The notes beneath the pieces are model-generated. The model had not been told where the DNA came from, did no database searches, and saw nothing but the letters and a program-made list of their open reading frames with translations. A program made the position numbers and the translations under genes. 64,000 bases of DNA from Amphiscolops sp. MND2022 (lineage: Eukaryota): positions 43,586,001 through 43,650,000 of the forward strand of contig OZ076420.1 in assembly GCA_964187785.1 (NCBI GenBank). The letters are read 5' to 3'. This document shows, piece after piece, positions 1-23,399 of this stretch; position 1 is the first letter of the stretch; each line of letters opens with the position of its first letter.

Positions 1-1448
1 TGTAATGAAATTAAAGTGGGGAACAAAATGCTTACTCAAGGTAAACAATGCAGCATCAAAATCCCAGAAGGGAATTAAAATGCCTTGATTGAGATTATTC
101 AGAAATATCGAAATGATAATCAATTATGAATTTGATGCAGAGTTATGTTGGCAACAATATAATAGACTGGACTTCAAAGACAAGTGCATTACTGTGATTA
201 TGTGACGTAATGGTCACTACCATCTGTCAATCATGGTTATTATTTACTTAAGCTGACTCTACATCCATTTGGCAGCAATTTATTATTTACTTATTGACTA
301 TTACATAATAAGACAATAAGACAATAAGTCCACTTGACTGCAAAAGAATTTATGTACTAAACTAACCGTCAAATTGGACTGGCAATACTCCCATCCTCAA
401 TCATCCATATTGCGACGTCACAGGTTTTGAATAACTAACAGTTAACCGGACTGCATTCAATTACTAATCTATACTCGATTACTTGAAAAAAATTACTGCA
501 CACCCACTTTGTGACGTCACGCACACTGTGTGACCATGGGTCAACTGGACGGCATTAAATCACTTACTTGCATGCCCTTCCCTGCTGAGACGCAATGTAC
601 TAAGAACTATAATTAAGTAATTACCAGGAATTACCCCTATTACCGCACGTTGAGTCTATTTGACCGCACCAATTCCTTGACTCTCACCCTGAAATCTTAT
701 GAAAATTTAAACCAAATTACGCACATTGGCACATATTATTCACTATATACATGAAACCTTCTGTCCATAAAGAAGTCGTGGCTACATGCAAAATGATTAA
801 AACCTAATGCTATCCTGTCATTGGGCAACATGCCCTTTGGTGTCTTCTCGTTCTATTGAACCTGCCAGTGAGATTTTCAGGAGACATCGTTCCATTTCTA
901 CTTAATTGGATTGGTAGTTCAATGTTACCCTTGTCTATCATGTTTCACCTTTTCTCCAGTTATTTTCGGTTATCTTTTCAAAGATTAATTCAGTTTCATC
1001 CGACTAATTTCATTCTTTTATTTTCATTTATTTACCAACACCTTCTGATTGGTCATCACAAGGCTTGCTGTCAGGTAGACCGACAGTCTTTGAGCAGCCA
1101 GTGTTAACGAATATTAGTGATGATAAACACTTTTCTGACTAGTTAACGCCGATTAACATGCCTTTGAAGAAGGAAGCAAACTATCCTCAAGTGGTACTTG
1201 ACGGGTGGTTTTCACAACTAATTCAAAGTTTGTTGATGACCAACTTATTTTATTCAACCCTAAAAGGGAAGGTTAAGGAAATGTTTTGGGGGGTTTTCCT
1301 CCACAAGTTCCCGCGAAAATCGCGGTTTGACCAAAGGTCTAACGGACTAGATTACTTCATTCATAAAACTCAAACTCTCCAGATCAGTTGCTCTCTATCA
1401 AGAATCAAAATTGCGAAAAAAGTTTTCCTCAATAAATACAACACCGAG

Positions 1449-2276
1449 ATGTCCCTGCAATTCAGATTGGGGAAACCCACACGATCTTCGGTCAGCTCCG
1501 CTTTTGATTCATCTAATGAAGAAATGGAGATCGATTCAGTTACGTCAAAACAAGACCAGTGGGACAGGGACTCAGAATACGACGATGTACAGGTACTGGC
1601 TTGTTACTATGAGAATCTTACATTTCCTCCCCAACTTGCAGCAGGTAGGGCGATGACAACCAGTCTCACACATTGCCTTGACGATTTGAGCCTGCCCTCT
1701 GACTTCACCCAAAGCTCTGTGGATACCTTCACTGAGTCATCAGGTAGGCTAAGAAAATGGCCAGTGGGTCACCCTCCTTCCTCTTTCGCTAATGCAGCTC
1801 CTGAAGACCACCCAATTGCAGAATGTAGACAACTGAACCCTATCTTAGAATCACCAATATCACCACCATTAGCAGAGCAGATGCCGACCCACCACTATGA
1901 AAGCCAATTCCATTCAGGACAGTACAATGACCAGTGGGTGCAAAACCCTCACTTCACAGCGCTAGCAATCACAGCAAGTGGTTCCTGTGGCCAACCTAAT
2001 GACGTGCATCACTATGGCTGTATTGTGTGTGGCAGGTCCTTTGCTGAAATTACAGAAGAAAATACCTTAGGCTACCTAGAGAGCAATCCGCTTCCAGGAG
2101 AGACCTATGACCAGCGGATAGAGAGGAGGCGCGCATTCCAGGCTGGCATGAAGGCGGGCACCTTCATCATGGTCCCCCGGGGAGTGTCGCAGGCTGCCGC
2201 CTGTGACGGCTTGTTCTATCAGATAATGCCGGACAACGACAACACCAACCCCGGACCAGGAGTCCTACCAATCTGA
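1449..2276 (+). CDS. Retrotransposon accessory protein (acidic N-terminus, CxxC motif, VSQAAACDG motif), about 275 aa, function unknown
   Basis: Within ORF 1158-2276. The ATG at 1449 is inferred by analogy to the start of 8975-9760. Shared blocks: PILESPISPP/PVLESPMSPP, GCIVCG/GCMVCG, RRRAFQAGMKAG/RREAYINGLNAG, VSQAAACDG, terminal LPI. Confidence 0.7.
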   Translation: MSLQFRLGKPTRSSVSSAFDSSNEEMEIDSVTSKQDQWDRDSEYDDVQVLACYYENLTFPPQLAAGRAMTTSLTHCLDDLSLPSDFTQSSVDTFTESSGRLRKWPVGHPPSSFANAAPEDHPIAECRQLNPILESPISPPLAEQMPTHHYESQFHSGQYNDQWVQNPHFTALAITASGSCGQPNDVHHYGCIVCGRSFAEITEENTLGYLESNPLPGETYDQRIERRRAFQAGMKAGTFIMVPRGVSQAAACDGLFYQIMPDNDNTNPGPGVLPI

Positions 2277-2962
2277 AATGCCCGACCAATCCTAAACACC
2301 AAGACATTGAACTAAAACATTATGTTTACTTGAAGTTGTTTTAAAAACATTCTCCGTTTCATGCAATATGCTGTTAATTACCAGATTTAGCTAATTTTGA
2401 TTTGACTTAATGTCAATTACACTACATGAAAATGTTATCTGTTTTGATGTTCAATATTGCAATGAAGGAAACGCGTCAACTGACACATTACTACAGTCCT
2501 GTTGACGCGTTGTCTAAAACCATTATCCAATAATTGGCGCCACTTCAGTACCTTAGTGCTGTCAATCTGACACATGGTCAGCTGTTGATTTGTACAAATT
2601 GGTGCTAATTATACTTGCGGACTAGTACTCTAGTGCAGTCAAACTGACGCGTGGTTAGTCCACGCTCTCAGCCAATCAGATCACAGCTTGAACTGCAGTC
2701 AAACTGACGTTAGGTCAGATTTACTATTTAGCTAGATATTTGTTGCCGCCACATGAAGTGTTGCTTTGATGTAGTTTTAGATATATACACCGCTGCTTTG
2801 ATGCTATTTTTATCTCCTATTATGCAATGACGTAAGGCCTTGTGACCTAACGTATTTTTAGAACAGATGATGTTATATTGGAATTGGGCTATACTTAGGG
2901 TTATGTCATTCTAAATTTAGCTCCCAGACACTCAGATTTATGCGTGTCATGCTGCTTTGACT

Positions 2963-3456
2963 TAGACAACTGAACCCAATCTTAGAATCACCAATATCAC
3001 CACCATCAGCAGAGCAGATGCCGACCCACCACTATGAAAGCCAATTCCATTCAGGATAGTACAATGACCAGTGGGTGCATAACCCTCACTTCACAGGGCT
3101 AGCAATCACGGCAAGTGGTTCCTGTGGCCAACCTGATGACGTGCATCACTGGCTGTATTGTGTGTGGCAAGTCCTTCGCTGAAAATACAGAAGAAATCAC
3201 CTTAGGCTACTCAGAGAGCAATCCGCTTCCAGGAGAGACCTATCACCAGCGGATAGAGAGGAGGCGCGCATTCCAGGCTGGCATGAAGGCGGGCACCTTT
3301 ATCATGGTCCCCCGGGGAGTGTCGCAGGCTGCCTTGTGACCTAACGTATTTTTAGAACAGATGATGTCATATTGGAATTGGGCTATACTTAGGGTTATGT
3401 CATTCTAAATTTAGCTCCCTGACACTCAGATTTATGCGTGTCATGCTACTTTGACT
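2963..3456 (+). repeat. Tandem duplication: copy of 1826-2198 fused to copy of 2837-2962
   Basis: Direct comparison: 2963-3333 matches 1826-2198 (with a 2-bp deletion) and 3331-3456 matches 2837-2962, joined at GCC/TGTGAC microhomology. Confidence 0.9.
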
Positions 3457-3584
3457 ATAAATACGTGGAAATCATTGTTGAGAAAATCATTGTTGCTATT
3501 GTATACACAACTGAAAACTGACGATTTGATATATTCTGACGAATAGTCAATTCACTGTTGAAAATAAGTTAAACTTTCTTCACT

Positions 3585-4341
3585 ATGCCTTCAACTAGAT
3601 AGCAGAAAGCAAAGGAAAAGCGAGCAAGACAACCAGACGTAATGTCAGATATCGAAAACCTCGATGTAATGCTTGGAAGTTATTCTAGAGATGCTCTAGT
3701 AGAGCAAGGTAATGTTAGTGATGTAGAAAGGGACTTTGAATCTAACAGGCACCAACAAAATACCGATCTAACTGAAGGAAACTTCAGGTCACTTCTAAAT
3801 GCTAATGAAAGTGAGAACAGTGAAATCACTGCTGAAACCATGAGGGTAATTAACTCAGAAATTTCCTCCCAAATGTCTAGAAAGCTAGAAGAAATTAGAT
3901 CTGACTTAAATTTGCAAGTATTGGATGCTATTAACTCAGCAATTCAAGAGAAGGTGCTTCCTTCCATTGAAAATGCACTAAAACCAGTTAAAACAGCTTC
4001 AAATGCAAAATAGGACCTTCAGTCAGATGGACCGCAGTCGAGCAAGGTGAATCAGTCAGGCCAGCAGTATGACCTAAAGTCAGGTGGACTGCATAAAAGC
4101 AGGAAACCTCAAATGAACAAATACGTTGACCTTAGGTCAGGTGGACTGCATTTGGACAGATTTGACCAGGATGCTCAGGAATGTGACCCTCGGTCAGATA
4201 GACCGCATCGAAGCGAAAATACTCAATCTAACCTAGAAACACGTGAAAATCGCTCTAAATCGAGTTTTAAAGAAAGTAACCATGCCAATCATATCAGAGA
4301 GAGTTCAATAGACTCTATTGAGAGTGTGGATGGTTATGACA
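3585..4341 (+). pseudogene. gag: Decayed gag N-terminal segment inside the LTR
   Basis: Similar to the N-terminus of gag 20362-22071 (SDIENLD, EI-S-L-SQMSR, AINSAIQEKVLP). In-frame stops at codon 6 and at 4013. Confidence 0.7.
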
Positions 4342-5800: not shown

Positions 5801-5879
5801 GCATAAATGTTAGACATCAGTTTTTGCGGTCTTTCAACCATTCCTTACCCTAGTTGAGAATGCCGTGCAATTTTGTAAG

Positions 5880-6060: not shown

Positions 6061-6661
6061 TTGACAAATAATTTCCAGTAAAAAATACTGAAAAAACAGG
6101 CGTATTTTCTGAAGTCTCAATTTTGATTCTGACGAAATTTGGTTCTCTCAAAAAAGGTCCATCTCGCAACCTAATATAATTGCTGAGAAAATAACTTAAT
6201 TACGAATCAATAAAAATGAAAAACTGGTGAATATCTACAAATCGACATTATGCAACACCATGGTCAAAAGTAATTTCCGTGGTTGTTTTGAGGAAGCCAA
6301 AGCCCAGAACACTTGTATCGGATACATCGCTGGGTTATATTGATAATATAATAATCGAGTTTATCTGGTGATACATAATTGACATACAAATATCAAATCA
6401 ACCGATACTCCATCTAATTGAGAATAGTTGTCTTCGCCGGAGGGTCTTTGCAGGGGGCAATTCACCATGGGGGGCAAAATTGGTGGTTATCAATGGATTT
6501 CCGCGGGTAGTCAAGCCAGGTGTGCTTTTTAACTGGAAATACGTCTAAACTCCTGTTGTTCCTGAGAATCAATGGTTACGTCATCAGACATGAAAAACAT
6601 TTATCTCCAGTTAAAAAAAATACTTAGATCTAACATGAAGATGACTCATTTTGGCAGAAAA

Positions 6662-6862
6662 CTTGATCATTAAAAACTTGATTTTTCCTTGATTGACAAC
6701 GCGTCGTACAGCTCCCAATACCGTATTCAATTTTTTGTCTCCCTTGCTTTGGATCTTAAAAATAAATCAAACGCAAGTTTGTCAAAAAATTGAATGCGAT
6801 AGTCGGTGATTTACGACGCGCTGTCAATCAAAAAAATTGAAACAGTCGAGTTTTTTTAATCA
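6662..6862. repeat. Small imperfect inverted-repeat (MITE-like) element
   Basis: TTGATTGACAACGCGTCGTA...TTCAATTTTTTG mirrored by CAAAAAATTGAA...TTACGACGCGCTGTCAATCAA. Boundaries are approximate. Confidence 0.45.
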
Positions 6863-7152
6863 ATGGTAGAGTTACTTGAATATTTTTAAAACCATTTCGC
6901 CTCTCGTCGAAACCGTGGCAATAAAACTGGAGTCCATCTAATATAGCTTGTAGCTTCTGCAACATGTTATTCCATTAGTATTCATTTCTCAACTATGCGA
7001 AGACTTAGCACCAAAGGCGACAACATTCAAACTGCAATCGAATTCATGTTTTTACGTGACGCCAAAAAATGTTTTTCTCCTACTAATTACAACCAAGAGG
7101 CCGTCATTTAAGAGCAAACTGAACTAAAAAAAATTCTACAAACGTTACTTAT

Positions 7153-9063
7153 TGTCATGAACATTTAAGTTAGGGAAATCATTGTTCAATGGATTCTCAT
7201 CCTGTTCATTTCTTAAGCTACTCTTTGCGTTAAGATTTCGCTGAACTTCGGAATTTAGTTCCGGTCTCTCGGACGGAACGTCCCATCCCCTTTTGGTCCC
7301 ATGTCCTGATCCGGCCATAATGGCGTTTTGGATTTGTGGAAGCACTTGAGTACTTATCGCATCGCTTATGGCTCTTTGTATTTGGCCACTCACAGAGTTC
7401 ATCATCTCGTCCATCTCACGCGAAAGGCGGGAGTTTAATTCGCTGGACAATTTATTTATTTCAGCGATAGAATTTCCTGTGACAGAATTGCGGTCACATT
7501 CGGCATTCATCCTAGGGTCAATATTTCCCCGGGATCTACCTATGTTTCCGTCCTCATTTTCAGACTCATTACTTGCAAAACTCCTAGATCTTCTAGGTAG
7601 GTTACTATTCAAGCTGCCTTCTTCTCTAGTATCAAAATGGTTCCGTCCCAACGTGATATCTAGATTTTCAATATCAGATAACATTTCAAGTCCTCTTGAC
7701 TTCCTCGCTTTCTTTTGCTTTCTAGTGGTGGGCATTGAAATAGTTCCTAATCAATAATAAATTAGTCAATACGGAACTAACAGCGAAGCCGTTTAGAGAT
7801 CAATCTTTTCTCGAGTAGTTCAATATGAAAATGTGTCCCACTCAGGCTAAACACCGGTATTTATACCCCTGAGTGGGTGACACTCACATATTTTACATAT
7901 ATTCATCTAAGATTGACATTGTAAGGTATGTAATGCCCTTGATTTTTACATATCTCTGGTATTTAACAGGTATGGTTTTGAAAGGTATCTGCAGCATAAG
8001 AACTTCTGTTTACATATTTCCTAAATGATCGGAAATCATCAATCACATATTTCTGTGAAATCCTGATTGGGAGAATTCCTAATATGTTTATCTCCCGGAA
8101 TGCAACATCAAACAGTCAACATAATGGTAAATACACTTAACAGTACTTCAAAGAACATATCTATGCTACATATTATTATTGCAATGTCAACAAATGTTAA
8201 GCTTGTTGATGGAATGCGAGACTCGTAGCAGTGGCATGCAGTGTTAGCACGTGCCACTACGTGGCTAAAGGTCAACGTAGGGGGAAGCACATTCAAATAA
8301 TACATGCCCAATCTATTTAAATATCATCGCATCACTAAAGTAGGGTATTTCCTAAAAGGGCCGAAATTGGCCAAATCCTGATTAATAGCACATTACTAAG
8401 GGGAGTAATGGTAAAAGGCCTTATCCGGCCTTTGATCAGCGCTCGGTTCGTTTGGCTTGTTGAAGGGTACATTGGTATTATTTTAATATTAAAGCACTTC
8501 TAGGATAGTCCCCAAGTGAAATGGTTAATTATGAGTACAAATAATTCAGCATCATTCGTTACGTCAAGACGGCCTAAACCGGCCATTTGACCAAAGCATA
8601 AAACAATTCGTGGACATTAAGTTAATTGGCCGTATCCGGCCACTACCAAATCAAAGTCATATTGCACTCGTGAATTGAAGCGCTGTGATTGGCTAGAAAG
8701 GTGAGCTCAAGTGACGTTTTTGGATTATCGCTGAACGTCACTTGAACTCGTTTCCTATACCGTTTTACAGTTGCTTCTATTAGTACTGCTTTTGATTCAA
8801 GGATTTACATTTCAACTGCACACTGTTACAAAGTAGCCTAATTTGGATATTTCCAAATTGTACAATTTTAACGGACTAATATTAACTTCATCTAAATACA
8901 AAACTATTACATGAATACGTAAAATAACAACTAACGTTGAATAAGGACAAGTTTCTAAAGTTCATAGCCTGTATTCAGTATATTGGTAGTGTTCTTGGTG
9001 TCGGGTTTTGTTCCTCTGCCGATGTAGTGTAATTATTACCGTCACAGGCGGCAGCCTGCGACA
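7153..9063 (-). repeat. 3' LTR of the Gypsy element
   Basis: Direct repeat of 21489-23399 with about 30 substitutions counted by eye (about 98% identity). Contains a 196-aa truncated gag ORF (7145-7735) and the last 29 codons of the accessory ORF. Confidence 0.97.
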
Positions 9064-9760
9064 CTGCGGGAGCAATGAAAAGTAGACTACCTGCATTCAG
9101 TCCGTTTATGTAGGCTTCTCGTCTTAGTTTGGTGACAAATTCGGGTTCTCCGCGCGGCGTTGATCTCTCCATGAACCAATTGATCTTCTCATCTTTAATC
9201 TCATCCACTGTTTTCCCACACACCATGCACCCAGTGTATCTCTGACTGCTCAAGTTGTCATAGGGCCTGGTGATTTGGATGTGGTAGGATGCATAGAACC
9301 CGCTCGTTGATGGCTGGACTAAAGGGGTATCTTGACTCGGTCCCCTTTCATGATCGGGTGGTGACATCGGGGACTCTAGGACTGGCAAGATTGTATTGCA
9401 TAGTTCGATGCGTGACTTTTCCATCCCCTTAGGGGGAGCATAGCACCTTTCTAGATCAAAGTACTTGTGGTCCATTTTTGGCGTCATTTCAGCATTAGTA
9501 TCAGAGGTACTTGGTCCAACCATTAACACATCTTCTTCTGGTATATCCGATGTCATTACCCTGCCCCCAATGAGCATAGGACTAGATGTTACTTCTCTCT
9601 CTATCCGCGCTATCAGCTGCTCCGTGTCGGTAGAACAATCCGTTTCCCAGTCCGACGCTTCACTTTCGCTGCTTGATATGTAGATTACTGATTTATCAGT
9701 GTTATCAGAATCGTATTCTTCAAAGTCAAACAATTTTCTTGAGAGGTTAAACGTGCTCAT
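8975..9760 (-). CDS. Retrotransposon accessory protein, 261 aa (acidic N-terminus, CxxC, VSQAAACDG); not env-like
   Basis: Intact ORF in the same sense as gag-pol, at the position usually held by env, ending inside the 3' LTR. Homologous to 1449-2276. No signal peptide or transmembrane stretch is visible. Confidence 0.8.
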   Translation of the reverse strand: MSTFNLSRKLFDFEEYDSDNTDKSVIYISSSESEASDWETDCSTDTEQLIARIEREVTSSPMLIGGRVMTSDIPEEDVLMVGPSTSDTNAEMTPKMDHKYFDLERCYAPPKGMEKSRIELCNTILPVLESPMSPPDHERGPSQDTPLVQPSTSGFYASYHIQITRPYDNLSSQRYTGCMVCGKTVDEIKDEKINWFMERSTPRGEPEFVTKLRREAYINGLNAGSLLFIAPAVSQAAACDGNNYTTSAEEQNPTPRTLPIY

Positions 9761-10639
9761 TATGAGTTTTTTGGCGATTTTTGAATCTGGTAAGGCGACT
9801 GATTGCTGAATAATTTAAGACAGAATGAATCTACCTAAATCCCGTCGCAAGCCGAGTTAGGACGTTTTCCCGAAGTTTCCAATTTGGCGGTTAAAACTTC
9901 GGTTGGCCGTCCTGATCCGTCGTAAACTTTCCTGAATGGAATTCCATAACTGATCGGCGCCCTTTGATATTTCAGTGTTTACCCTCCATCAGCATCGTCA
10001 CTATGAGAGGTGTGAATGACGCTTGAGTTATTAATATCAACTACACCAGTCTCAAGTAGGTAATTAACGGGTCGCTTGTAAACAATTAACGGCATGCGTC
10101 GCAAAGTTTTCTCAAAATGGCTTCAGCCAATCAGAACTAAGCCTTGATAAATTGTGAATTGAATAATAAAAATGGCGAAAATAATAAATCCAAATAATCC
10201 AAGATGGCGAAAATTCTAACTAATGGTAACTAGGGTAACTGGACGGAACGGCGGAACAAAATAGGGCAAACGGCCATAACCGGCTTCTAACTAAATAAAC
10301 TGTAAATAACAAAGTTCTTTGTACACTTCGCTGGCAGACTCCATGTACAGAATAAATATGTAGATAATCCATAATATTAGTCTGGTAATAATCTTCAGCC
10401 ACGAACTCCAACTTTCCAATTTCCTCAATTCTTCTACCCAATTTTAATTCCATTTCAATTCTGATTATCTTTTATTTGTTTCCTTTCGACTGATACTCAT
10501 CTTCTTGCAAGCGTTACTCCTTAGCCGATTCTTCTTCCCAGAGCAACCCTTGATCCTCTTTCTCCAGCCGGTTTCGGCCATATCCATTAACTGCTATATC
10601 CGGACAAGGACTCGTTCCCACATCCAATTCAATCCCAGG
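9761..10639. promoter_or_regulatory. Putative divergent promoter between the accessory ORF and the antisense gene
   Basis: AGCCAATCAG (CCAAT box) at about 10125-10134. YY1-like CAAGATGGCG at 10200-10209 and AAAATGGCG at about 10169-10177 on the + strand. Flanked by head-to-head start codons. Confidence 0.35.
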
Positions 10640-13600
10640 ATGTCTTCTTCTGAAGGTTGGTTTGTTTTTATTTCGAACTAAATCTAACTTGATCAGGGTT
10701 AAATCCGTTCACAATATGCTTCCTGTTTCCATTAGTAAACGCGTGATAACACGTTTCGTTCAGATTTTCAAACACTTCCGGAAGTTTTCTAATGCGGTAA
10801 AATGGATTTTTTTCAAGGAAGCTCACCGCCAAATTTCATTTCCTTTTGTTTAGCAAATCAGCCAGGAGACGAACAGCAAACACAAACCAACTCTGCAGCG
10901 GACATTCCCGACCAACATACACAAACGATTGTTTCTGTGGGTGCGTCCACCAACGTCCGTGGATCACAATTGTCTCCTCCTCCTTTTGCTCCAATAAAAC
11001 CGCCAAGGTCTCCGAGCAGTACAGACAGCAACGTCGACGTAACATCTTATGCCGACGAAAAGCTTCAGCTCCTCGAGCAGGCCCTACAGCAATCAACGGG
11101 ACATACTGAGGGTCCTTCTTCCACGGAGATCGAGGCACGGGTTACTACGCCGCTCTTTCGTACCAGCACCCCTACCCCAGGCGTAACCGGTGAGACCGTC
11201 GAGCTCAATTTGACTCAGCTAGAGACTGGACTGACGATTGCTCCTTCCTCAAGGACTATACTAGCGGAATTGTTGCCCACTGACGTGACTCCTGCCGAAA
11301 TGTCCGCAGCCTCATTTCTTCAGATTGAAACGGACGAAAGCTCTTCCCTATGTGATGTCCCCAAGCTGCCAACAGGAACACCAAAGGTCAGGTGGTTGGG
11401 CGATGAGACTGGAACCGAAGAAGCCGGCGACACATCCAGCCAGGCTAGTGCCCCTCAATTGTACGCCTACCTGCCAATAGGTAATGAAGCAGACACTGCA
11501 GGGGAAGGGTCATCAACTGATACTTTCGCTGCAATTCCTGATTCCATGCGTCCTTCCACTTCAGCAGTTCAGGACCCCAAAATCAGGGAACTTTCCGGCC
11601 GTAGTAGGGCCATTTTGAAACAGTATTTCGATGATGATGCCAGCACTATCACCTTCCCGCTTGGTCATCGAACTGTGGCATTCACGGAGCCGCAAATCTA
11701 TCATCTCCTAAGGGTCCTTACTGACGAGACCTTGAAAATGTCCTACTCCACCATGGAGCAGATGGTAATTGGCGCGGTTAGGGGGGCTCCTGTCACTTCC
11801 AGTCCTCGAACTGACCACTTCAAGATCCGACCAAGGGCTCAAACTCCCGGCCCAGGACTGCAAAGTGATTCGGAAAATAGTTCGCGGGCTGAGTACTGTT
11901 CCGGATCAGGGACTGACACCTCTGAAGGATTCGGTGCTGGCCAAAAAAGTAGAGGGTCAGAATCTTTCAACGAAACCGATAGTTCTGGTGAGATGGCACT
12001 CATCTCACGGGCTTTCAAGGAACCTTTCAGCCGCGTTCCACCATCTCGAGCTGACCCTACCCAAGCAGGTTTTGAGTCCACTGAGCAATCCAGCCTCGAC
12101 GCCACCCTCTCCGAGTTACGTACCCAGACGGCCCCAGCACAACCTCTAGTTTCAAGTTCTGGTAAATTGCCCAAGAAGAAACGGCGCGGCCATACACGAG
12201 GCATTCCCATGAAGGAGGAATTCTTCTCCAAAATTGGCTGGACCCGATCGTTCATTTCCGGGCCCGCCGATCCCCTTCACAATCCTTTTATGGTGTGGTG
12301 CCATATATGCAAGAAGAATATCTCAGTGAAAACCAAGGGTACACTAGAGATTCTGCGTCACCACAGAACTGAAAAACATCTCAGACGTGACCAGAGATGG
12401 CGCTATGAACACCTCAAAAGCGTTGATCCAGTGACTGGGAAAGTGCAGCATCGGGTCAGGGGGCGGAACGGCAAGATTCTCACTAAGATTGAGCTGGCGA
12501 AAGAACTCCCCAAATTTATGCACGTCGAACTAATAGACATCGGAGAACGCTTCCCATTCTACGACGACTTCGTGAAAGGGACGCGAACCACACTCGTCAC
12601 TCCTGCGTCAAGGGCCAAGACACAAATACACCTCATTGAGGACTTTGTGCAAACTCACGGTGATCTTGGAGTACTCCGCAGACTATGGGATCAAATAGGA
12701 TCTCTGACGAATTATCAAACCAGTTACTGTGACTTCGATTGGGGGGAAGAAAGAATCTCGGTAGGTTCCCTTTCTAGTTAGCGTTTTGCTCAGGGAAGGT
12801 ATAGGTTCCTTACACATTTCGTAATTTTATATTTCCTTTTCAGGCCATCTTCCAACACATTTTCAATTGTGCCATGAGTGAATTAGCAGAGCAAATCGCT
12901 GCCACCCAATGCTTCGCTATCGAATTTGAAAATGTGGGCGTGAATAGACTCATGTCTATCAAGTTCTGGAAAGGCGATTCTCCTTGTCGCGTCTTTGTGT
13001 GCCGAAGTGGACTTCCCTCCGCTGATCTGACTGGGGACTTGGGTTCGATATCCAGATTGTTCTCTGTGGTTTCAACCGAAGCCGATATCGTTGCCTGTTC
13101 AGGATGTCCGGTAGAGTTGATCCAAACCATAGATCACAATGAGTTCTTTCCCCGAGCAGTACAGAGTTGCTTTCGTTTTGAGCAGCTGCAACTTCAGAAG
13201 ATGATGCACAAGCCCACCTACAGCGTGTTTGGACGGATCGACTTTTTCTCCGTCCTGAAGTGCCTGATCGTTTCATTGGGAGCTGCTACCGGTGAGGACT
13301 GGGTTCTGGAATCTCCTGATCTGGGACGAGTAAGTATATTAAGCGCACTCATGTAGCTAGGGGTTTGAAGGTAGGTGCAGTTGAGAGACAATTTTGGTTC
13401 ATTTAAGGCCATCGACACCTGCAAACTAGATTTGCCAAGCCTCCCCAATCTTTGCCGAGAACTTGTGAAGCATTGGAAGGCAATCAGACAGTACTTGACT
13501 ACGCACACCCCTCATCAAGGAATGCAAGGAGTCCACAATCAGGTCCAAAGCTTCGAGTGGTCCATCATCTGTGACTTCTTCTTTGTCACCAAATTGGAAT

Positions 13601-15160: not shown

Positions 15161-18100
15161 TTAGTATCTGAAGTCTTCTGGGTAGTTTGGGTTGGGGTTA
15201 GGCCTGAGGTTATATTTTCCTCCTCTAGGACTCAGGCTTTCATTTCTAGCATCATTTTCAGATATTTCGGGCACGATAATATCATCCCCCCTATTTGGAG
15301 AAATTTGTGTATCGTTTTCATTCGTCAAGTTTCTTTCTGAAAAACTTTCATCGTTTTCCGGTCTATCTGCCGTATTCGGCAATGATTTTTCTTGGTTTTT
15401 TGGGGAAACGGCCTGATTCGGCCAATCAGATTCTTCATTTTCTGTGACTGCAGTAGATTCATTTCTTTCAGTGACGTCATCGCTTAAGCGGTCATTCCGG
15501 CTGTGCGCTGCATTGCCGTTGTTCGTTACTTCTCGCGTGATTATGTAATCCACTTCATTCTCGGTTACGTCATTTGTATTCGTTTCTGCCGGATTCGGCC
15601 GTTCACCATTCGGCGTGCTAGTCGGAATAGTCGCGCTTCCTTGTGTAACTAGCTGCTCACCAAAGTCGGTTTCCCACGTTATGATATATAAATCATCTTG
15701 CGGAATGACGATTTCTTCATCTGGCTGTAACCGTTGTTCTCGGAAATTGTCTTCAAGTGGTTGATTGGGGACAAACTTCTTAAGGCGAATCCGATGTAAA
15801 ATTTGAGTTTTGTTCGTGTTGATCCGTCGTACTATATAGTTTTCATTTGGCAAAACTTTTTGGACTACAAATGGTCCAACCCAATGATAATCGCGGAATG
15901 GGATTTTTGATCCTTGATTATCCGCTTTCGGCTGTAGGACAAAACAGTATTCGTTCTCCTTTAGTGGAGCGGCTTTTGCTTTGCGGTCATAATTTTCTTT
16001 GTACTTGATATACGACTGCATAATGTTGTGCTTTGTTTTGTCAATCAGGATTTTTGTCCGGTTTTGGATTTCTTCAGCAAATTCGGTTTTGGGGTTGATC
16101 TGCTCGTTTGGATTACTTCTAAGCTTGTGATCCAATATATTGAATGGAATTCTTCCGTGAAATACTCTCGTAGGCTCACAACCGATGCTCGCGTGATAAC
16201 TAGTATTATGATTCAGTACTGCTAATGGCAAGTATTTGTGCCATTGTCGGCGATATTCCCCACATGCCATTTTGAGATTTGTTTTCAATGAGGCATGAGT
16301 TCGCTCTAATTTCCCAATTGTTTGCGGGTGTTTTGTCGTGGCGCATTTGAGTGTTATGCCCAAAATCTGCGTAACCTCCGCAATAATTGTAGAAGTAAAT
16401 GCAGTACCTTTATCAGTGATAAGAGTCGTTGGTAAATATGAGTGTTTAGTCATGATGTCAATGAGCACTTTTGCTACATTGATCGCTGATGCGTCCGTAA
16501 GGGGATAGGCGAACAAATATCTTAAGAATACATCAATTGCCGTTAGGATGTTTTCATACCCTCCACTTGGGGGAAGATTCGGCAATAGGTCGATCTGCAT
16601 GTTGTCTTCAGGTCCAAGGTCCCATTCGGGCAAGTTGAGCAGCTCCGGTAAGATCGTTGCATTAGGGACTCGCTTGTCTCTTGCGCATTGTTCACACCCT
16701 TCTACCCATTTTTTGACGTGTTTAGCCATGTTAGGGTAGTAATACCTCTGTCGGATTTCCTGCAACATTTTTAAAATGCCCGGATGTTTGTGCGCTGTCC
16801 CGTGAAGAGACTGAAGCAATTCCAGTAGTAAATGTTGCGGGAGCAGGATTTGATGGTATTTAACGTTCCCTGTTTCATCAAAGTATTGCCTTGTTAAGAT
16901 TTCGTCCTTTAGTACAATCCGTTCCAGATTGTTTGCGTAATGTCTATGTCGGGCATCCTGGTGCAGTAGGTTTTCTGAATACTCTTCGTGAAGCAGTTTT
17001 GCTTTCAATTGTTGTAGTACTGCATCTTTGGATTGCTCCATAATGATCTGGTTCGTTTTCCTCAATCGGACTTGTATATCGGGGTTTTGCTCGATCAGAT
17101 TTGTTGACAGAGTTTGTATAGTGACAGTGGGCTCATCAGTTGTTGGATTTTTCCTGATTGCTTCTTTTCTTGCCCAATGATGTTCCTCTGTCTCATCGTC
17201 GTCACTGGTGTAGAAGATTTGTTCTTCTTGTGACACCCCTGCGGATTGGACATTGATTTCGATTGGTAGAGTTTGTACATCTTCACGAATTTTCATCACC
17301 AATTTGTCCTTCGGGTCTGCTTCCAATCGGGACAAATAGTCGGCAGCTGTATTTTGTGCCCCCGGGATGTGCGCAATGACAAAATTGAACTGGATAACAT
17401 AGTCACATGCGTTCCACAGTGCTGGGGGTATTATTTTTGTTTGGAAAAATGGTGTTACAGCCTTGTTGTCCGTAAGGGTGATGACCGGTTTCGGCGCACC
17501 CCAGAAGATATGTCCGAATTCTTTGAATGCAAAATAAATTGCAAGAAATTCTTTAGCATAAATTGACATCTTGATCTGTGCTGGGGTGAAAGTTTTTGAT
17601 CCATATGCGACCGGTGCGTACGATTTCCTGAGTGATGTAAATTTCTGGCTTGGGTCGTCTTCAATTAGGACCGCGTACCCGGCTGCACCAAAACTTGCAT
17701 CAGTCATTAGTGCTATTTGCTTGTTTGGAATGGGTTGCTGTAGGGCCAAGTCGCAACATTTGTCTAGTGCTTTGTTGATTTCTTCGAATTGCTGGACTAA
17801 TTCTTTCGATACTAGGACTTTTTCGTCACTTTTCAGCATCTTGTAGAATGGGGCATGGCGTTCGGAGAGTCTTGGGACATAATTCCTGTAGTAGTTTAGG
17901 AATCCCAAATATCGTTGTAAAGCCTTTTTCGACTTCGGGAATTTGGTCTTTTCCAGAAAGTTTTGCACGTTCTGTTTCTGGGGTTTGACGCCTTGTGGGG
18001 TAATAGTCCGTCCGAGAAAATCGATTTCTTTTGCACCGAAGTGACATTTGTGCATTGTTAACTTAAGGCCTGCTTTCTGAATGCATTTGAACGTAGTTCT

Positions 18101-20371
18101 CAGGTTCGTCATGAGGTGGTCAACATCATTGGCTGCGATGCCGATATCGTCCACATACTGGGCACACTGATCCGCTTTAATGACTTTGTCAAGGTATTCT
18201 CTCATGAAACTCGAGAATGCGGATAGTGACCGACTAAGGCCTTGTGCCAAACGTCTGTAAGCGAATGTACGACTGGCAAAATTGAAAGCCAACATTTCTA
18301 TTGAACGTTGGTCGGCCATTGGTAGGCAGTGATATGCCTGTGAGCAGTCCAATTTACAGAACAGTTTTTTGCCTGCCAAGTGTTGGGCAGCATCAACCAG
18401 TGTGCTGACGGGGTGATTATTGTTAATATAATCATCCGAGATGAGGTTGTTGATTTTTCTCAAGTCAACCAAGAGTCGGAGTTTCCGATTCGGTTTCTTC
18501 TGTGCAAATATTGGACTCGCATATTTCGAAATTGGCAGTGTAGTTATTATGCTATATTTGTGTAACATGGCTAATTCAACTAGGATGTCCTCCTTCAAGT
18601 TGATAGGAGCTGGAAGGCTTTGACTATAGGCTGGGGAATCGTCCTTAGGCGTCAATTTCACCTTGAATTCCTCGTTCATGCCTATATCAAATCGGTGTCG
18701 TGCAAAGATGTCATGGAATTCCACTAGCAATTCCTCTATGTTCTCCTTTTCTTCAGGAGTAAGGGTGGAATCTTTCCAATCGAAGTTTTCTAGGAATTTT
18801 GCACGAGATTCTGCATTTGTAGTGGGGTCGAGTGTCTCCAGGTCCTGTAAGGCCTGTAACTTGCGTAGGATTCGTTTCTGGATAGGTGTGTGTTCGTCGG
18901 GGTTTCCAGGGTTTTCTGGAGTTGGGAACCAATAATTTTCGGAGTTTTGTGGATTTTTATTGGTCTTGATGAGACTGCTGACATAGTGGGCTGCCTGCTC
19001 CTGGTCATTCTGCAAAAGGTGCCAGGTTGATGCCGGATCTACCGGTTTGACGTACTTCAGCTGTTCTGGTGTCATGACAGAGAAATTGGCAATATGAAGT
19101 CCCTTTTTGAGTTTATAAGGGTGGTCTGTGAAGTTGTTCACTGGTATCATTATATTGCCATCATTTAGAGTGACCAAGGCCGGGCAAAATGTGATGTCGC
19201 CTTCTTCATGTAGAAGGTCGCTTGGTTGCAAAATTCCGGTAACCGCATTCTCAGGATACAGTAGGGAATTGGTCCTAATTAGGACTCTGTCATTTGGCGG
19301 AATTGTTATTTCAGTGGGGTTGAGAATCGGTTCTAGAACATTGGAGTATTTGTGATCAGCTGTTTTAAGCTGCATTGAAAAGAACGGGAAATTCAGGATT
19401 CCTTGTCTCATGTCCAAGACTGTATGGTTTCTCTGAAGGAACATTAGTCCAATTATCGGTCCTGTCAAATGTTCCATTACTATAAAGATTTCATGAAACT
19501 CGATGTCACCAACTTCGAATTTGAGCTCTATGGTACTCTTGGGAGTTTCCAGTTGCCCATTAGCGACCAATATTTGGAAATTCGGAGGCGGACCTTCCCG
19601 GATAACAGATTGTAGAGATAGGAGACGAATTTTCCGGAGGTCCATTTCAGGGATTGCACTGGACAGTGCCCCAGTGTCTATTAATCCATCAATGGTCAAT
19701 TCCCCAAAGTCCATTGGGAAATAAAGCATGCGTTTCTTGCATTTGAGGTTAATGTTGGTTGACAGAGGTATACAGTCTGGTTCACCATCTCTGGTGATGA
19801 GTATATTTTGGAACTGTTTTTCGTCTAGTAATGATTGTGGTATGGCGTCGGTAGTATTTTCAGGGTTCTCGGTTCCCAGAGGGTTTGGGAACACTGGGTG
19901 GTTTGTACCATCGTTCATCTGCCAGTTTTCAATTAGTGTCCGTGTTTTCTTGTTGTGTGTGATTGGAGGGTTCTCGTGGACTGTTTTATTGTAGAGCTCG
20001 ATGTCGTCTAAAACATACTGGAATTGCAGGAGGTCCTGGTTATAGATCTCTGTATCCCAGTAGGGATCTCTGTCATAGTCTGGGTCGATGTATGTTGGGT
20101 TGTAATCATCGATCAGGGGAATGGGCCTGAACCGGGTTGTAAAGGTAGTTGTATAATCAGGATCCCAAACAGGAATTGGTTTCGGGAACAAATGGGTGTT
20201 ATTGTAGGTGAAGGTGATGGCTTTTTCCATCTGCTGCTGCCAGACAACAGAGGGATAGCCCATCAATTGCTGATTGTATTGATGAAAAGTTTTCGTTGGA
20301 GGATCCGACCTGATATATTGTCGGACGGATATGAGTTCGCTATATTGGAGTCGTGGCGAAGTTAGTTTTTT
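15161..20371 (-). CDS. pol: Gypsy Pol polyprotein (aspartic protease, RT, RNase H, integrase), expressed by -1 frameshift
   Basis: 1701-aa ORF with IDTGA (protease), YVDD (RT), TDAS/KEFLA/TDNK/ADYLSR (RNase H), H..H...CEQC and D..D..E (integrase). The frame stays open upstream to the slippery site at 20365-20371. Confidence 0.97.
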   Translation of the reverse strand, partial: KKLTSPRLQYSELISVRQYIRSDPPTKTFHQYNQQLMGYPSVVWQQQMEKAITFTYNNTHLFPKPIPVWDPDYTTTFTTRFRPIPLIDDYNPTYIDPDYDRDPYWDTEIYNQDLLQFQYVLDDIELYNKTVHENPPITHNKKTRTLIENWQMNDGTNHPVFPNPLGTENPENTTDAIPQSLLDEKQFQNILITRDGEPDCIPLSTNINLKCKKRMLYFPMDFGELTIDGLIDTGALSSAIPEMDLRKIRLLSLQSVIREGPPPNFQILVANGQLETPKSTIELKFEVGDIEFHEIFIVMEHLTGPIIGLMFLQRNHTVLDMRQGILNFPFFSMQLKTADHKYSNVLEPILNPTEITIPPNDRVLIRTNSLLYPENAVTGILQPSDLLHEEGDITFCPALVTLNDGNIMIPVNNFTDHPYKLKKGLHIANFSVMTPEQLKYVKPVDPASTWHLLQNDQEQAAHYVSSLIKTNKNPQNSENYWFPTPENPGNPDEHTPIQKRILRKLQALQDLETLDPTTNAESRAKFLENFDWKDSTLTPEEKENIEELLVEFHDIFARHRFDIGMNEEFKVKLTPKDDSPAYSQSLPAPINLKEDILVELAMLHKYSIITTLPISKYASPIFAQKKPNRKLRLLVDLRKINNLISDDYINNNHPVSTLVDAAQHLAGKKLFCKLDCSQAYHCLPMADQRSIEMLAFNFASRTFAYRRLAQGLSRSLSAFSSFMREYLDKVIKADQCAQYVDDIGIAANDVDHLMTNLRTTFKCIQKAGLKLTMHKCHFGAKEIDFLGRTITPQGVKPQKQNVQNFLEKTKFPKSKKALQRYLGFLNYYRNYVPRLSERHAPFYKMLKSDEKVLVSKELVQQFEEINKALDKCCDLALQQPIPNKQIALMTDASFGAAGYAVLIEDDPSQKFTSLRKSYAPVAYGSKTFTPAQIKMSIYAKEFLAIYFAFKEFGHIFWGAPKPVITLTDNKAVTPFFQTKIIPPALWNACDYVIQFNFVIAHIPGAQNTAADYLSRLEADPKDKLVMKIREDVQTLPIEINVQSAGVSQEEQIFYTSDDDETEEHHWARKEAIRKNPTTDEPTVTIQTLSTNLIEQNPDIQVRLRKTNQIIMEQSKDAVLQQLKAKLLHEEYSENLLHQDARHRHYANNLERIVLKDEILTRQYFDETGNVKYHQILLPQHLLLELLQSLHGTAHKHPGILKMLQEIRQRYYYPNMAKHVKKWVEGCEQCARDKRVPNATILPELLNLPEWDLGPEDNMQIDLLPNLPPSGGYENILTAIDVFLRYLFAYPLTDASAINVAKVLIDIMTKHSYLPTTLITDKGTAFTSTIIAEVTQILGITLKCATTKHPQTIGKLERTHASLKTNLKMACGEYRRQWHKYLPLAVLNHNTSYHASIGCEPTRVFHGRIPFNILDHKLRSNPNEQINPKTEFAEEIQNRTKILIDKTKHNIMQSYIKYKENYDRKAKAAPLKENEYCFVLQPKADNQGSKIPFRDYHWVGPFVVQKVLPNENYIVRRINTNKTQILHRIRLKKFVPNQPLEDNFREQRLQPDEEIVIPQDDLYIITWETDFGEQLVTQGSATIPTSTPNGERPNPAETNTNDVTENEVDYIITREVTNNGNAAHSRNDRLSDDVTERNESTAVTENEESDWPNQAVSPKNQEKSLPNTADRPENDESFSERNLTNENDTQISPNRGDDIIVPEISENDARNESLSPRGGKYNLRPNPNPNYPEDFRY

Positions 20372-22071
20372 GACTCATCATTAGAAGATGAGGATTGGGA
20401 GCTTGATGATGTCGGCTTGGTCTGAGGTTTCTGAGCCTTTGAATTAGGCTTATTATCATTTGAGTCCTCGGGTCTAGTGCGTTTGGGTTTAAGATGTGCA
20501 CCGGCACCTTGCCAACATCTTTCATCCGGGTGGTTCTTTTTGCCACAAGTGCCACACTCCGGATATGTTTTCTTTTGAGTGGACTTGCCTTGTTGGGCGT
20601 CTTTTTCTTTTTTCTTTTTTAACTTTTCACAGTCCTTGACCATGTGGCCCTTTTCCTTGCAATAGTTGCAAGTGATGTCCGACCTTTGTCCAGTGGACAG
20701 AGGAGTTTTGGGCTTAGTTGATGAGGAAGTCATTGTTGCCATTGGTAGGTCGTCTGACTCCTCGAGAGCGTTAAGTTCCAATTCCCTCTCCAAATGAGCA
20801 ACTATTTCATCATATGAGCCATTTTCTAATCTGGCCATGTTGACGGACCGCTTCAGTTTTGGTGGCAGTTTTGCGTAAAACAAGCTGTCAATCATTTTCT
20901 GTGCATGATCACCAAACGCTTTCTCGGCTCCCTGGTTTAATTCTTCAAGAAAATCAGGCAGCTTCAACGTATTGGGATCGAAGACCAGACGGTGCCATTT
21001 ATGTTTGGCAGTCGCCTGTGACTCGGGCTTGACGTATTTCCGTCTAAAGATGACTAATACGTCCTCTAGAGTTTGTCGGTTACTTGAGTTGATGTTTTTG
21101 AATGTCTGAAGGGCATTCTTCCTCAATAAAGAGTGGAAGTGATTGATCTTCATTTGCTCAGTCATTTCTGGCTGCATCTTGATCATAGTGTGAAATAGGT
21201 CTTCGAACAGCTCGAATTTTTCACTTTTGCCATCGAATGTCATGGTATTTGAGTTGACTGGGCGTATTGTGAGTTGCTGGGCTGTCGGTCTATTCTGCAT
21301 CGTAGTCAAGACGTCTGCCAGTCGAGTGATGGGGTCGGAGTCAATAGCCGTAGCGATTCTCTCTTGTGCCGGGATCGTCGTGTCGAGGTTGATGTCCTCA
21401 AAGGACCTGTCAAGATGATTTCTGGATGAGATTCGTCCTGTTAGAAACTCAGGAACTTGATTTGGAGATTCGTTGTCTCCTGTCACCATGTCATGAACAT
21501 TTAAGTTAGGGAAATCATTGTTCAATGGATTCTCATCCTGTTCATTTCTTAAGCTACTCTTTGCGTTAAGATTTCGCTGAACTTCGGAATTTAGTTCCGG
21601 TCTCTCGGACGGAACGTCCCATCCCCTTTTGGTCCCATGTCCTGATCCGGCCATAATGGCGTTTTGGATTTGTGGAAGCACTTGAGTACTTATCGCATCG
21701 CTTATGGCTCTTTGTATTTGGCCACTCACAGAGTTCATCATCTCGTCCATCTCACGCGAAAGGCGGGAGTTTAATTCGCTGGACAATTTATTTATTTCAG
21801 CGATAGAATTTCCTGTGACAGAATTGCGGTCACATTCGGCATTCATCCTAGGGTCAAAATTTCCCCGGGATCTACCTATGTTTCCGTCCTCATTTTCGAA
21901 CTCATTACTTGCAAAACTCCTAGATCTTCTAGGTAGGTTACTATTCAAGCTGCCTTCTTCTCTAGTATCAAAATGGTTCCCTCCTAACATGATATCTAGA
22001 TTTTTAATATCAGATAACATTTCAAGTCCTCTTGACTTCCTCGCTTTCTTTTGCTTTCTAGTGGTGGGCAT
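20362..22071 (-). CDS. gag: Gag protein, 569 aa, with two CCHC zinc knuckles
   Basis: CNYCKEKGHMVKDC and CGTCGKKNHPDERC. Retrotransposon-gag-like core (FDGKSEKFELFE...). Lies upstream of pol. The first 583 nt are inside the 5' LTR. Confidence 0.95.
   Translation of the reverse strand: MPTTRKQKKARKSRGLEMLSDIKNLDIMLGGNHFDTREEGSLNSNLPRRSRSFASNEFENEDGNIGRSRGNFDPRMNAECDRNSVTGNSIAEINKLSSELNSRLSREMDEMMNSVSGQIQRAISDAISTQVLPQIQNAIMAGSGHGTKRGWDVPSERPELNSEVQRNLNAKSSLRNEQDENPLNNDFPNLNVHDMVTGDNESPNQVPEFLTGRISSRNHLDRSFEDINLDTTIPAQERIATAIDSDPITRLADVLTTMQNRPTAQQLTIRPVNSNTMTFDGKSEKFELFEDLFHTMIKMQPEMTEQMKINHFHSLLRKNALQTFKNINSSNRQTLEDVLVIFRRKYVKPESQATAKHKWHRLVFDPNTLKLPDFLEELNQGAEKAFGDHAQKMIDSLFYAKLPPKLKRSVNMARLENGSYDEIVAHLERELELNALEESDDLPMATMTSSSTKPKTPLSTGQRSDITCNYCKEKGHMVKDCEKLKKKKEKDAQQGKSTQKKTYPECGTCGKKNHPDERCWQGAGAHLKPKRTRPEDSNDNKPNSKAQKPQTKPTSSSSQSSSSNDESKN
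20365..20371 (-). other. -1 ribosomal frameshift slippery heptamer A AAA AAC
   Basis: Fits X XXY YYZ and directly precedes the gag TAA. The -1 frame has a TGA just upstream and is open from here into pol (KKLTSPRLQYSELISVRQY...). Confidence 0.85.
21472..21488 (-). other. Candidate primer-binding site TGGTGACAGGAG... abutting the 5' LTR, inside gag coding sequence
   Basis: TGG follows the LTR end ...CATGACA immediately and encodes gag MVTGD. The priming tRNA is not identified (TGGTGAC matches a Trp-type PBS for only 7 nt). Confidence 0.6.
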
Positions 22072-23399
22072 TGAAATAGTTCCGAATCAATAATAAATTA
22101 GTCAATACGGAAATAACAGCGAAGCCGTTTAGAGATCAATCTTTTCTCGAGTAGTTCAATATGAAAATGTGTCCCACTCAGGCTAAACACCGGTATTTAT
22201 ACCCCTGAGTGGGTGACACTCACATATTTTACATATATTCATCCAAGATTGACATTGTAAGGTATGTAATGCACTTGATTTTTACATATCTCTGGTATTT
22301 AACAGGTATGGTTTTGAAAGGTATCTGCACCATAAGAACTTCAGTTTACATATTTCCTATATCATCGGAAATCATCAATCACATATTTCTGTGAAATCCT
22401 GGTTGGGAGAATTCCTAATATGTTTATCTCCCGGAATGCAACATCAAACAGTCAACATAATGGTAAATACCATTAAAAGTACTTCAAAGAACATATCTAT
22501 GCTACATATTATTATTGCAATGTCAACAAATGTTAAGCTTGTTGATGGAATGCGAGACTCGTAGCAGTGGCATGCAGTGTTAGCACGTGCCACCACGTGG
22601 CTATAGGTCAACGTAGGGGGAAGCACATTCAAATAATACATGCCCAATCTATTTAAATATCATCGCATCACTAAAGTAGGGTATTTCCTAAAAGGGCCGA
22701 AATTGGCCAAATCCTGATTAATAGCACAATACTAAGGGGAGTAATGGTAAAAGGCCTTATCCGGCCTTTGATCAGCGCTCGGTTCGTTTGGCTTGTTGAA
22801 GGGTACATTGGTATTATTTTAATTTTAAAGCACTTCTAGGATAGTCCCCAAGTGAAATGGTTAATTATGAGTACAAATAATTCAGCATCATTCGTTACGT
22901 CAAGACGGCCTAAACCGGCCATTTGACCAAGGCATAAAACAATTCGTGGACATTAAGTTAATTGGCCGTATCCGGCCACTACCACATCAAAGTCATATTA
23001 CACTCGTGAATTGAAGCGCTGTGATTGGCTAGAAAGGTGAGCTCAAGTGACGTTTTTGGATTATCGCTGAACGTCACTTGAACTCGTTTCCTATACCGTT
23101 TTACAGTTGCTTCTATTAGTACTGCTTTTGATTCAACGATTTACATTTCAACTGCACACTGTTACAAAGTAGCCTAATTTGGATATTTCCAAATTGTACA
23201 ATTTTAACAGACTAATATTACCTTCATCTAAATACAAAACTATTACATGAATACGTAAAATAACAACTAACGTTGAATAAGGACAAGTTTCTAAAGTTCA
23301 TAGCCTGTATTCAGTATATTGGTAGTGTTCTTGGTGTCGGGTTTTGTTTCTCTGCCGATGTAGTGTAATTATTACCGTCACAGGCGGCAGCCTGCGACA
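21489..23399 (-). repeat. 5' LTR of the Gypsy element
   Basis: Direct repeat of 7153-9063, followed on the minus strand by the TGG PBS. TATAAATA at 22194-22201, 123 bp upstream of the gag ATG. Confidence 0.97.

Follow-up and report, generated by a model that had tools for sequence, protein, structure and literature searches.

A stretch of 64,000 nucleotides from Amphiscolops sp. MND2022 (assembly GCA_964187785.1, contig OZ076420.1, positions 43,586,001 to 43,650,000 of the forward strand; hereafter the window, with its first letter as position 1) contains two long terminal repeat (LTR) retrotransposons of the Ty3/Gypsy type, elements A and B, each of which bears an open reading frame (ORF), here named ORF-X, that ends within the 3′ LTR. 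ORF-X is a fast-evolving, vertically inherited gene of one large Ty3/Gypsy clade and is under purifying selection; the codons preceding its first ATG make it quite probable that translation initiates at a non-AUG codon (AUU, AUA or AUC). Characterised accessory proteins other than envelope are rare among animal LTR retrotransposons; ORF-X persists in hundreds of open copies, in different species and in lineages whose identity is only about 25%.

ORF-X as a selected gene of one Ty3/Gypsy clade

The initial annotation had placed the two ORFs at 8975-9760 on the minus strand (element A) and at 1449-2276 on the plus strand (element B), coordinates that were confirmed, and had proposed that they are homologous. 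Indeed, BLASTP aligned the two products with 71/264 identities (27%, E 2e-24), and all the motifs listed for them are present. The LTRs of the two elements are otherwise dissimilar, as had been stated, sharing outside the ORFs only 27 identical nucleotides at the LTR start; the ORF ends inside the 3′ LTR, 89 nt from its border in element A, 92 nt in element B and 86-95 nt over 37 subfamilies. The ORF occupies the env position and lacks a transmembrane helix, since no 19-residue Kyte-Doolittle window of at least 1.6 is found in any of the 37 subfamily representatives (maximum 1.52); a signal peptide was judged from hydropathy alone, and the N-terminus is basic and then acidic.

The representatives correspond to clusters, at 85%, of 147 intact frames. 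Their dN/dS ranges from 0.06 to 0.18 with a median of 0.10, as calculated on the 29 unsaturated pairs among 134 with more than 55% identity; the remaining 105 pairs are saturated at synonymous sites. Within whole elements, dN/dS is 0.10-0.13 for ORF-X, 0.08-0.14 for gag and 0.06 for pol, while the nearest copy (95%) displays about neutral decay across all genes, as expected after insertion. The dN/dS analysis and the family searches returned neither neutral decay of the family nor a known domain; together with the hydropathy data, the median dN/dS and the lack of matches in Pfam, PDB and the ESM Atlas, this agrees with the proposal of an uncharacterised, selected, non-env accessory protein family.

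Conversely, the description of A and B as members of two divergent families has to be abandoned: they belong to sister lineages of one clade, whose reverse transcriptases (RT) differ by no more than 19%. Trees of 18-20 elements gave the identical four clades from ORF-X, RT, integrase and gag, and because ORF-X recovers the same clades as the other genes, its occurrence in both elements is due to vertical inheritance and not to sharing. ORF-X proteins of clades A and B are only 16-34% identical, against the difference of at most 19% in RT, a fast divergence that is as expected for a host-facing protein.

Searches of the same genome with six divergent queries gave at least 137-150 matches each, from 5,400-8,100 first-look candidates, figures that are not deduplicated and are not copy numbers. 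A stop is present in 11 of the 146 best-scoring matches of one such search, a sample biased toward intact copies. The order gag, pol, antisense gene, ORF-X, LTR was seen in 20 of the 22 regions fetched around ORF-X matches, the exceptions being one internally rearranged region (L101/L102) and one that ran off the fetched stretch (L111/L112), and the same layout is present in all four clades. A profile search yielded 688 representatives at E <0.001, none of them carrying a name. Two proteins, P0209 and P0321, are without a close copy in genome G000 (best identities 42-45% and 42%, respectively), and two metagenome contigs bear relatives with no more than about 39% identity; because of these sequences, the family can be said to reach other organisms. 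No relative was found in IMG/VR among 95 pattern matches.

The main features of the two elements are listed below.

7148-7152 and 23400-23404: target site duplication (TSD) of element A, 5 bp
7153..9063, minus: 3′ LTR of element A, 1911 bp, TG...CA; carries the ORF-X C-terminus and a gag 5′ fragment
8975..9778, minus: ORF-X of element A from the conserved ATC (Ile); first ATG 9760; stop 89 nt into the 3′ LTR
9041..9063, minus: first 23 nt of the 3′ LTR of element A, a 9-bp hairpin/palindrome encoding VSQAAACD; 2 purines ahead
9092..9208, minus: predicted helical hairpin, the sole confidently modelled part (block pLDDT 88-95)
9218..9229, minus: CxxC of element A (C178, C181), with C121 and H160 candidate zinc ligands
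9659..9688, minus: motif VIYISSSESE of element A, resembling a SUMO-interacting motif (SIM); hydrophobic core and Ser/acidic tail
9761..9778, minus: pre-ATG coding extension IAKKLI of element A, preceded by an AAA context; putative non-AUG start
9797..9828, minus: initiator (Inr)-like TCATTC (A at 9826) and downstream promoter element (DPE)-like AGT (+27) of element A; putative internal promoter
10802-12760, 12844-13329, 13381-13624 and 13765-14921, plus: antisense gene in 4 exons with a BED-like C2H2 finger, head-to-head with ORF-X
15161..20263, minus: pol of element A, with the protease-RT-RNase H-integrase order of Ty3/Gypsy (Pfam order in 15164-20263)
20362..22071, minus: gag of element A, with a CCHC knuckle; start about 580 nt inside the 5′ LTR
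21477..21488, minus: primer-binding site (PBS) of element A, TGGTGACAGGAG, complementary to the 3′ end of host tRNA-Leu(CAG)
21489..23399, minus: 5′ LTR of element A, 98.4% identical to the 3′ LTR
1357..1388, plus: Inr-like TCATTC (A at 1359) and DPE-like AGT (+28) of element B; putative internal promoter
1410..2276, plus: ORF-X of element B from the conserved ATT; ATG 1449; stop 92 nt into the LTR
2185..4341, plus: 3′ LTR of element B, with TSD GAAGG and an internal duplication that adds to its length

Start codon and putative internal promoter

Both ORFs had been annotated from an ATG; the selected frame, however, begins upstream of both ATGs, at 9778 (minus) and 1410 (plus), and the ATGs are probably not the first start. 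In 37/37 representatives the sequence K-I-A-K-K-hydrophobic-hydrophobic-(M/L/K)-x-(K/R)-(Y/F), or a close variant, lies ahead of the first Met or spans it; this Met is found 6, 10, 11 or 13 codons past the Ile, depending on the clade, and is absent in one representative. Over the 10 codons from the Ile no in-frame stop occurs (0/37), while the other five frames contain stops in 8-27 of the 37, and the ORF-X frame over the pre-ATG codons scores BLOSUM 3.07 per column. The extension has a pooled pS of 0.75 and a pN of 0.22, resembling the rest of the gene, and the coding signature is gone just upstream of the Ile, where 16/37 representatives have stops.

The motif could be parsed in 124 of the 147 intact frames, and the codon at the Ile position is ATT in 78, ATA in 40, ATC in 3, ACT in 2, GTT in 1 and ATG in none, mostly within the context CAAA-ATH-G, which is a strong start context in invertebrates. 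One 18-copy subfamily, in its 15 copies with a parsed motif, has a stop two codons ahead of the Lys, and for this reason an upstream in-frame start is excluded there. The metagenome relative L226, at most 39% identical, retains AAA-ATT-GCA-AAG-AAA, and L227 has AAA-ACG-G at the corresponding place, ACG being a near-cognate codon, together with an Inr/DPE pair. Two copies with ACT, which is not near-cognate, and one locus with an in-frame ATG two codons upstream weigh against non-AUG initiation. Initiation at AUU and AUA, and its detection through a coding signature ahead of the AUG, are described in PMC3105428; ORF-X presents the pattern used there, namely a coding signature upstream of the first AUG that starts from a near-cognate codon in good context.

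It is distinctly unlikely that the protein begins at the AUG and that the preceding conservation is either untranslated or reached by an unrecognised splice. Nearly all subfamilies do conserve an in-frame AUG further downstream, as this explanation would have it, but the free synonymous sites, the K/R and Y/F exchanges and the stops in all five other frames are those of a translated segment, no conserved in-phase AG acceptor is found ahead of ORF-X, and where clade A has its first Met the other clades have an internal Leu or Lys. An antisense or shifted frame was rejected as the source of the conservation, since the other five frames carry stops. The ATG at 1158, where the longest ATG frame of the element B ORF begins, was discarded because it is not conserved. 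Two candidate splice acceptors were also rejected: the CAG before ORF-X, with 47% vs 76% pyrimidines, mixed phases and an earlier AG in 16/23, and the LTR junction, which reads CCCGCAG in clade A and GGGGAG in the other clades. If ORF-X starts at the non-AUG codon, annotation from ATG cuts it short in every copy.

Transcription of ORF-X probably starts from a promoter of its own, internal and of the Inr/DPE type. The assignment follows the consensus letters of Inr and DPE: in 23/37 representatives YCATTC precedes the Ile codon by about 50 nt (73-81 in clade D) and has an AGT behind it at +28 to +30, against 0-2 in seven control stretches and 0.28 in shuffles. With 47% pyrimidines, against 76% for the 42 true acceptors of the antisense gene, the AG of this signal does not resemble an acceptor. 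ORF-X and the antisense gene are divergently oriented, with 1-2 kb between them. DPEs at +28 to +32 are described for TATA-less retrotransposon promoters (PMC4748587). Two points weigh against the promoter assignment: this pattern, like the SIM pattern considered below, was written after viewing the alignments, so that its enrichment is inflated, and the spacing in element A itself is +27, outside the counted range, so that this element is not among the 23. The expected product would be a short subgenomic mRNA running from about 9826 to the 3′ LTR, on which leaky scanning could give two products, a scarce long one that includes the basic N-terminal helix and a shorter one from the AUG.

Element layout, antisense gene and LTR edge

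The clade has the order LTR-gag-pol-[spliced antisense gene]-ORF-X-LTR; ORF-X comes after the 4-exon antisense gene, not directly after pol. Element B extends beyond the left edge of the window with the same layout as element A. The pol order, the TG...CA LTRs with a short TSD and the tRNA PBS identify the host element as a Ty3/Gypsy LTR retrotransposon, and 5-bp TSDs, read by eye, flank most of the fetched elements. The PBS rests on a 12-nt match to a host tRNA 3′ end pattern that is present at 887 places in the genome; ARAGORN called tRNA-Leu(CAG) at 1 of the 6 loci examined among those bearing it, and an earlier tRNA pattern had given zero matches. At G000:C8:35.59-35.64 Mb (L223) a tRNA-Leu-like 3′ end, not recognised as tRNA by ARAGORN, is repeated in tandem with a period of about 296 bp, and most of the 887 matches may be repeats of this type. 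A TATA-like TATAAATA lies in the LTR about 125 nt ahead of gag. The gag start is about 580 nt within the LTR and its frame crosses the PBS (window 21489-22071, 7153-7735); because gag begins inside the LTR and reads through the PBS, every 3′ LTR holds a gag fragment.

The antisense gene (10802-14921, plus strand) comprises about 1,280 codons, with GT-AG introns and consistent phases, and exons 2 and 4 keep their acceptor positions in every clade. Between elements with 89-93% identity in pol it is only about 49% identical, suggesting that it evolves fast or is exchanged as a cassette. The Atlas gave a lead to BED/zf-C2H2_12 (0.91-0.92, recognition just under threshold), one basis for reading it as a dead hAT transposase; exon 4 is unnamed in Pfam and PDB, and a search of longer proteins with it returned no match, which is weak evidence.

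Some rearranged copies and other repeats were also observed. The duplication in the 3′ LTR of element B (window 2837-3456) copies ORF-X in its 3′ half; the copied piece, at 2963-3333, is interrupted by a stop and shifted in frame. The loci L070-L073 (G000:C6), L064-L065 (C3) and L066-L067 (C1) comprise tandem elements with a common LTR (in C6 three LTRs, TSD GCGCC) as well as 5′-truncated tandem units that start shortly upstream of ORF-X or inside the antisense gene. Elsewhere in the window, 4400-5760 holds a decayed fragment, RT/RNase H/integrase-like by eye, of a different LTR element, with a near-perfect 106-bp inverted duplication at 4878-5090; 39833-40702 is a perfect palindrome with arms of 208 bp and 192 bp, 100% complementary, either a foldback element or an assembly artefact. 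An ORF at 40620-41075 (minus) has an NPxxY-type motif, which probably marks a rhodopsin-like GPCR exon.

At the LTR edge, the initial 25 nt of the repeat encode the peptide VSQAAACDG, and four-fold degenerate sites in them are nearly frozen (GTG 37/37, TCG 36/37, GCC 36/37 and 34/37). These nucleotides form a 9-bp stem in which 35-37 of 37 pairs are kept at each position. There are two compensatory changes, each confined to a single subfamily, and shifts from G-C to G-U also occur; the covariation is weak, these shifts being also synonymous CpG transitions. Because the LTR-end nucleotides are frozen and form a hairpin, the invariance of VSQAAACDG and of its distal Cys says little about the protein, and the nucleotide pattern indicates that a signal in the nucleic acid accounts for both. 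Conservation of a peptide at the border of an LTR can thus reflect constraint on the DNA and nothing else. The polypurine tract is unusually short. Compared with a tract of at least 8 nt, the purine run before the 3′ LTR measures 1-8 nt in 37/37 subfamilies and 1-2 nt in clade A (just AG), yet copies of the clade with 99.8-100% identical LTRs exist. The stretches concerned in the window are 9064-9072 and 2179-2184, which lack a normal polypurine tract.

Proposed function and comparison with known systems

The ORF-X protein, of about 270-295 aa and unspliced, has a net charge of -7 to -28 and consists of conserved islands in a disordered chain: a basic N-terminal helix, a SIM-like patch, GRxMT, C121, (S/T)PxSPP, H160, CxxC and a terminal GxLP, the last with free synonymous sites despite its position inside the LTR. 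The SIM-like island reads (V/I)(I/V)x(I/L)SS(D/E)EE in clades A and D and in the outside relatives, and acidic-DI(E/Q)V(I/L) in clades B and C; the pattern, set post hoc, is found in 41/45 divergent proteins vs 2.6 shuffled. It fits the description of a phospho-SIM, with a core of the [V/I]x[V/I][V/I] type and an acidic or CK2-type Ser flank (PMC4476178), and a SUMO gene is present in the host (L215). As regards zinc, which the initial annotation assigned to CxxC and the distal Cys, only the CxxC half of that proposal is retained: binding through C121, H160, C178 and C181, each present in 92/95 proteins, is plausible, while the distal Cys (C239, 95/95) sits in the frozen LTR-end hairpin. C121 and H160 are missing in L227-type relatives.

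No known family or fold was recognised. Pfam gave 0 families for both window proteins and, over 87 members, a weak zf-C2H2_12 match in 8 as the best result (E 0.005); the best hit of the PDB profile search (E 0.045) is in a low-complexity region, and the ESM Atlas gave no family match. On the low-confidence models, Foldseek (viral, pdb) and VIA-align found no fold, with no Foldseek E <0.001, and the best structural match (Z 6.2 over 46 residues, rmsd 2.3) is a generic helical hairpin. An LxCxE in clade B was dismissed, its spacing being one residue off the motif.

These features can be brought together by supposing that ORF-X is a low-dose nuclear regulator or anti-silencing adaptor engaging SUMO-dependent chromatin silencing, a reading that we judge as apt to be right as wrong. 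Its position, putative internal promoter, probable weak start and linear-motif anatomy are the reasons for regarding it as a low-dose regulator, and the SIM-like motif is the reason why engagement with SUMO-dependent silencing is the simplest role. The product would be a mostly disordered acidic protein with one or more phospho-SIMs, a Pro-directed SPxSPP site and a small zinc/helical-hairpin domain, and as a small nuclear adaptor it would bind SUMO-tagged host chromatin proteins, so that the element stays expressed. Several observations count against this role: SIM-like cores are very common (PMC4476178), the element B protein and 3 others miss the pattern, and no classical basic nuclear localisation signal or activation domain was identified in ORF-X. 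In addition, the AlphaFold models are poor overall (pLDDT 54 and 59, pTM 0.29) and confident only for the helical hairpin after CxxC, and the N-terminal helix is modelled with low confidence, its hydrophobic moment being weak (mean 0.23).

More speculatively, ORF-X might work with the head-to-head antisense BED-finger protein, which would be the source of DNA targeting. In such a two-gene counter-defence cassette, which is rather unlikely as a whole, the transposase-derived protein would recognise the element, perhaps at the LTR-end palindrome, while the AUU-initiated ORF-X would dock on SUMO via its phospho-SIM and block or strip the SUMO-dependent silencing machinery. If true, the retrotransposon would encode an anti-silencer directed against the SUMO arm of transposon silencing in animals and dosed by a weak start codon, and the cassette could account for the spread of the clade in the genome. 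If the SIM reading holds, the long-standing question of whether animal retrotransposon proteins counter host silencing becomes testable.

Different roles can be proposed from the same features. ORF-X might be a post-transcriptional factor, similar to Rev or to CERV of the Cer1 element, that binds or exports the long genomic RNA, perhaps via the hairpin at the LTR start. CERV is nuclear and phospho-regulated, has a Cys-rich loop and a helix-hairpin-helix, and is needed for genomic RNA export (PMC10309623); ORF-X bears a CxxC, a helical hairpin and an S-P site, and the conservation of the LTR hairpin and its compensatory changes would suit an RNA target. This role is nevertheless unlikely, since ORF-X is strongly acidic with no Arg-rich RNA-binding stretch, shows no match in sequence or fold, and has a conserved SIM-like motif for which an export factor has no need; moreover, a search that was not exhaustive found no sense-strand intron requiring such a factor. 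The SIM-like motif would instead be put to use by a degradation adaptor in the style of ICP0 or Vif, holding on to sumoylated restriction factors through this motif and bringing in a host ubiquitin ligase through the Zn/helical domain. The conserved Cys/His, the invariant SPP and the fixed C-terminal GxLP with free synonymous sites are in keeping with it, and ICP0 degrades sumoylated PML (PMC4476178), but neither a RING or other ligase family match nor a cullin-adaptor motif (by eye) was recognised, and we consider it very unlikely.

Finally, the short purine run and the env position could indicate a particle or reverse-transcription helper that offsets the polypurine tract, or an envelope substitute binding membranes by the N-terminal helix, and the env gene of Oikopleura Tor elements is also internally promoted (PMC4402516). 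Tor Env and sORF2, however, possess a transmembrane segment and ORF-X does not; ORF-X also evolves much faster than RT does, and its weak start codon suggests a low dose, all of which make this highly improbable.

Extra ORFs in LTR retrotransposons are already known (PMC7264820), as are internal promoters in Tor elements (PMC4402516). Apparently new are the ORF-X protein family, the conserved non-AUG start and the head-to-head pairing with a spliced antisense gene, for which no description was found in the literature, passages of PMC13524379 included, Repbase and Dfam annotation being outside the scope of the search. The closest parallel in plants is given by aORF-3S and aORF-3R of Athila, Bagy2, Grande, RIRE2 and Retand, conserved extra ORFs of unknown function located between pol and the 3′ LTR in sense or antisense (PMC7264820). 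In the present clade, differently, a sense and a spliced antisense gene are found head-to-head in one animal element, and the sense ORF-X has no transmembrane domain, enters the LTR and has an apparent non-AUG start. In Oikopleura, the Ty3/Gypsy-like Tor3b and Tor4b express a 3′ gene, env, from an internal promoter (Penv; PMC4402516); its product is a transmembrane glycoprotein, and ORF-X lacks a transmembrane helix. Drosophila MDG1-group elements have selected non-env accessory ORFs, sORF1 and sORF2, the first of which is nuclear (PMC11952523); they lie upstream of gag and encode 70-110 aa, and sORF2 is transmembrane, unlike ORF-X. CERV of C. elegans Cer1 (Ty3/Gypsy) resembles ORF-X as a novel accessory protein with a Cys-rich region and a helical hairpin, and is nuclear with a regulatory phosphoserine (PMC10309623). 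Conversely, it is 517 aa long, spliced, and shares exons with gag, while ORF-X lies 3′ of pol.

Among retroviruses, the accessory ORFs of foamy viruses overlap U3, as ORF-X does. The regulatory gene Tas/Bel1 (and Bet) lies near the 3′ end and is expressed from an internal promoter apart from the LTR (PMC7390438), an arrangement that ORF-X appears to share, and a low-dose regulator in the manner of Tas is what the anatomy of ORF-X suggests. No sequence or fold match to Tas was found, the ORF-X element is without env, and Tas binds DNA itself, while ORF-X is acidic with a SIM-like motif. The nef ORF of HIV/SIV also crosses the polypurine tract into U3, with a short peptide frozen by the underlying DNA signal; Nef is unrelated to ORF-X, being myristoylated and made by splicing. 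With its apparent internal promoter and conserved non-AUG start, the clade thus displays an organisation resembling that of complex retroviruses.

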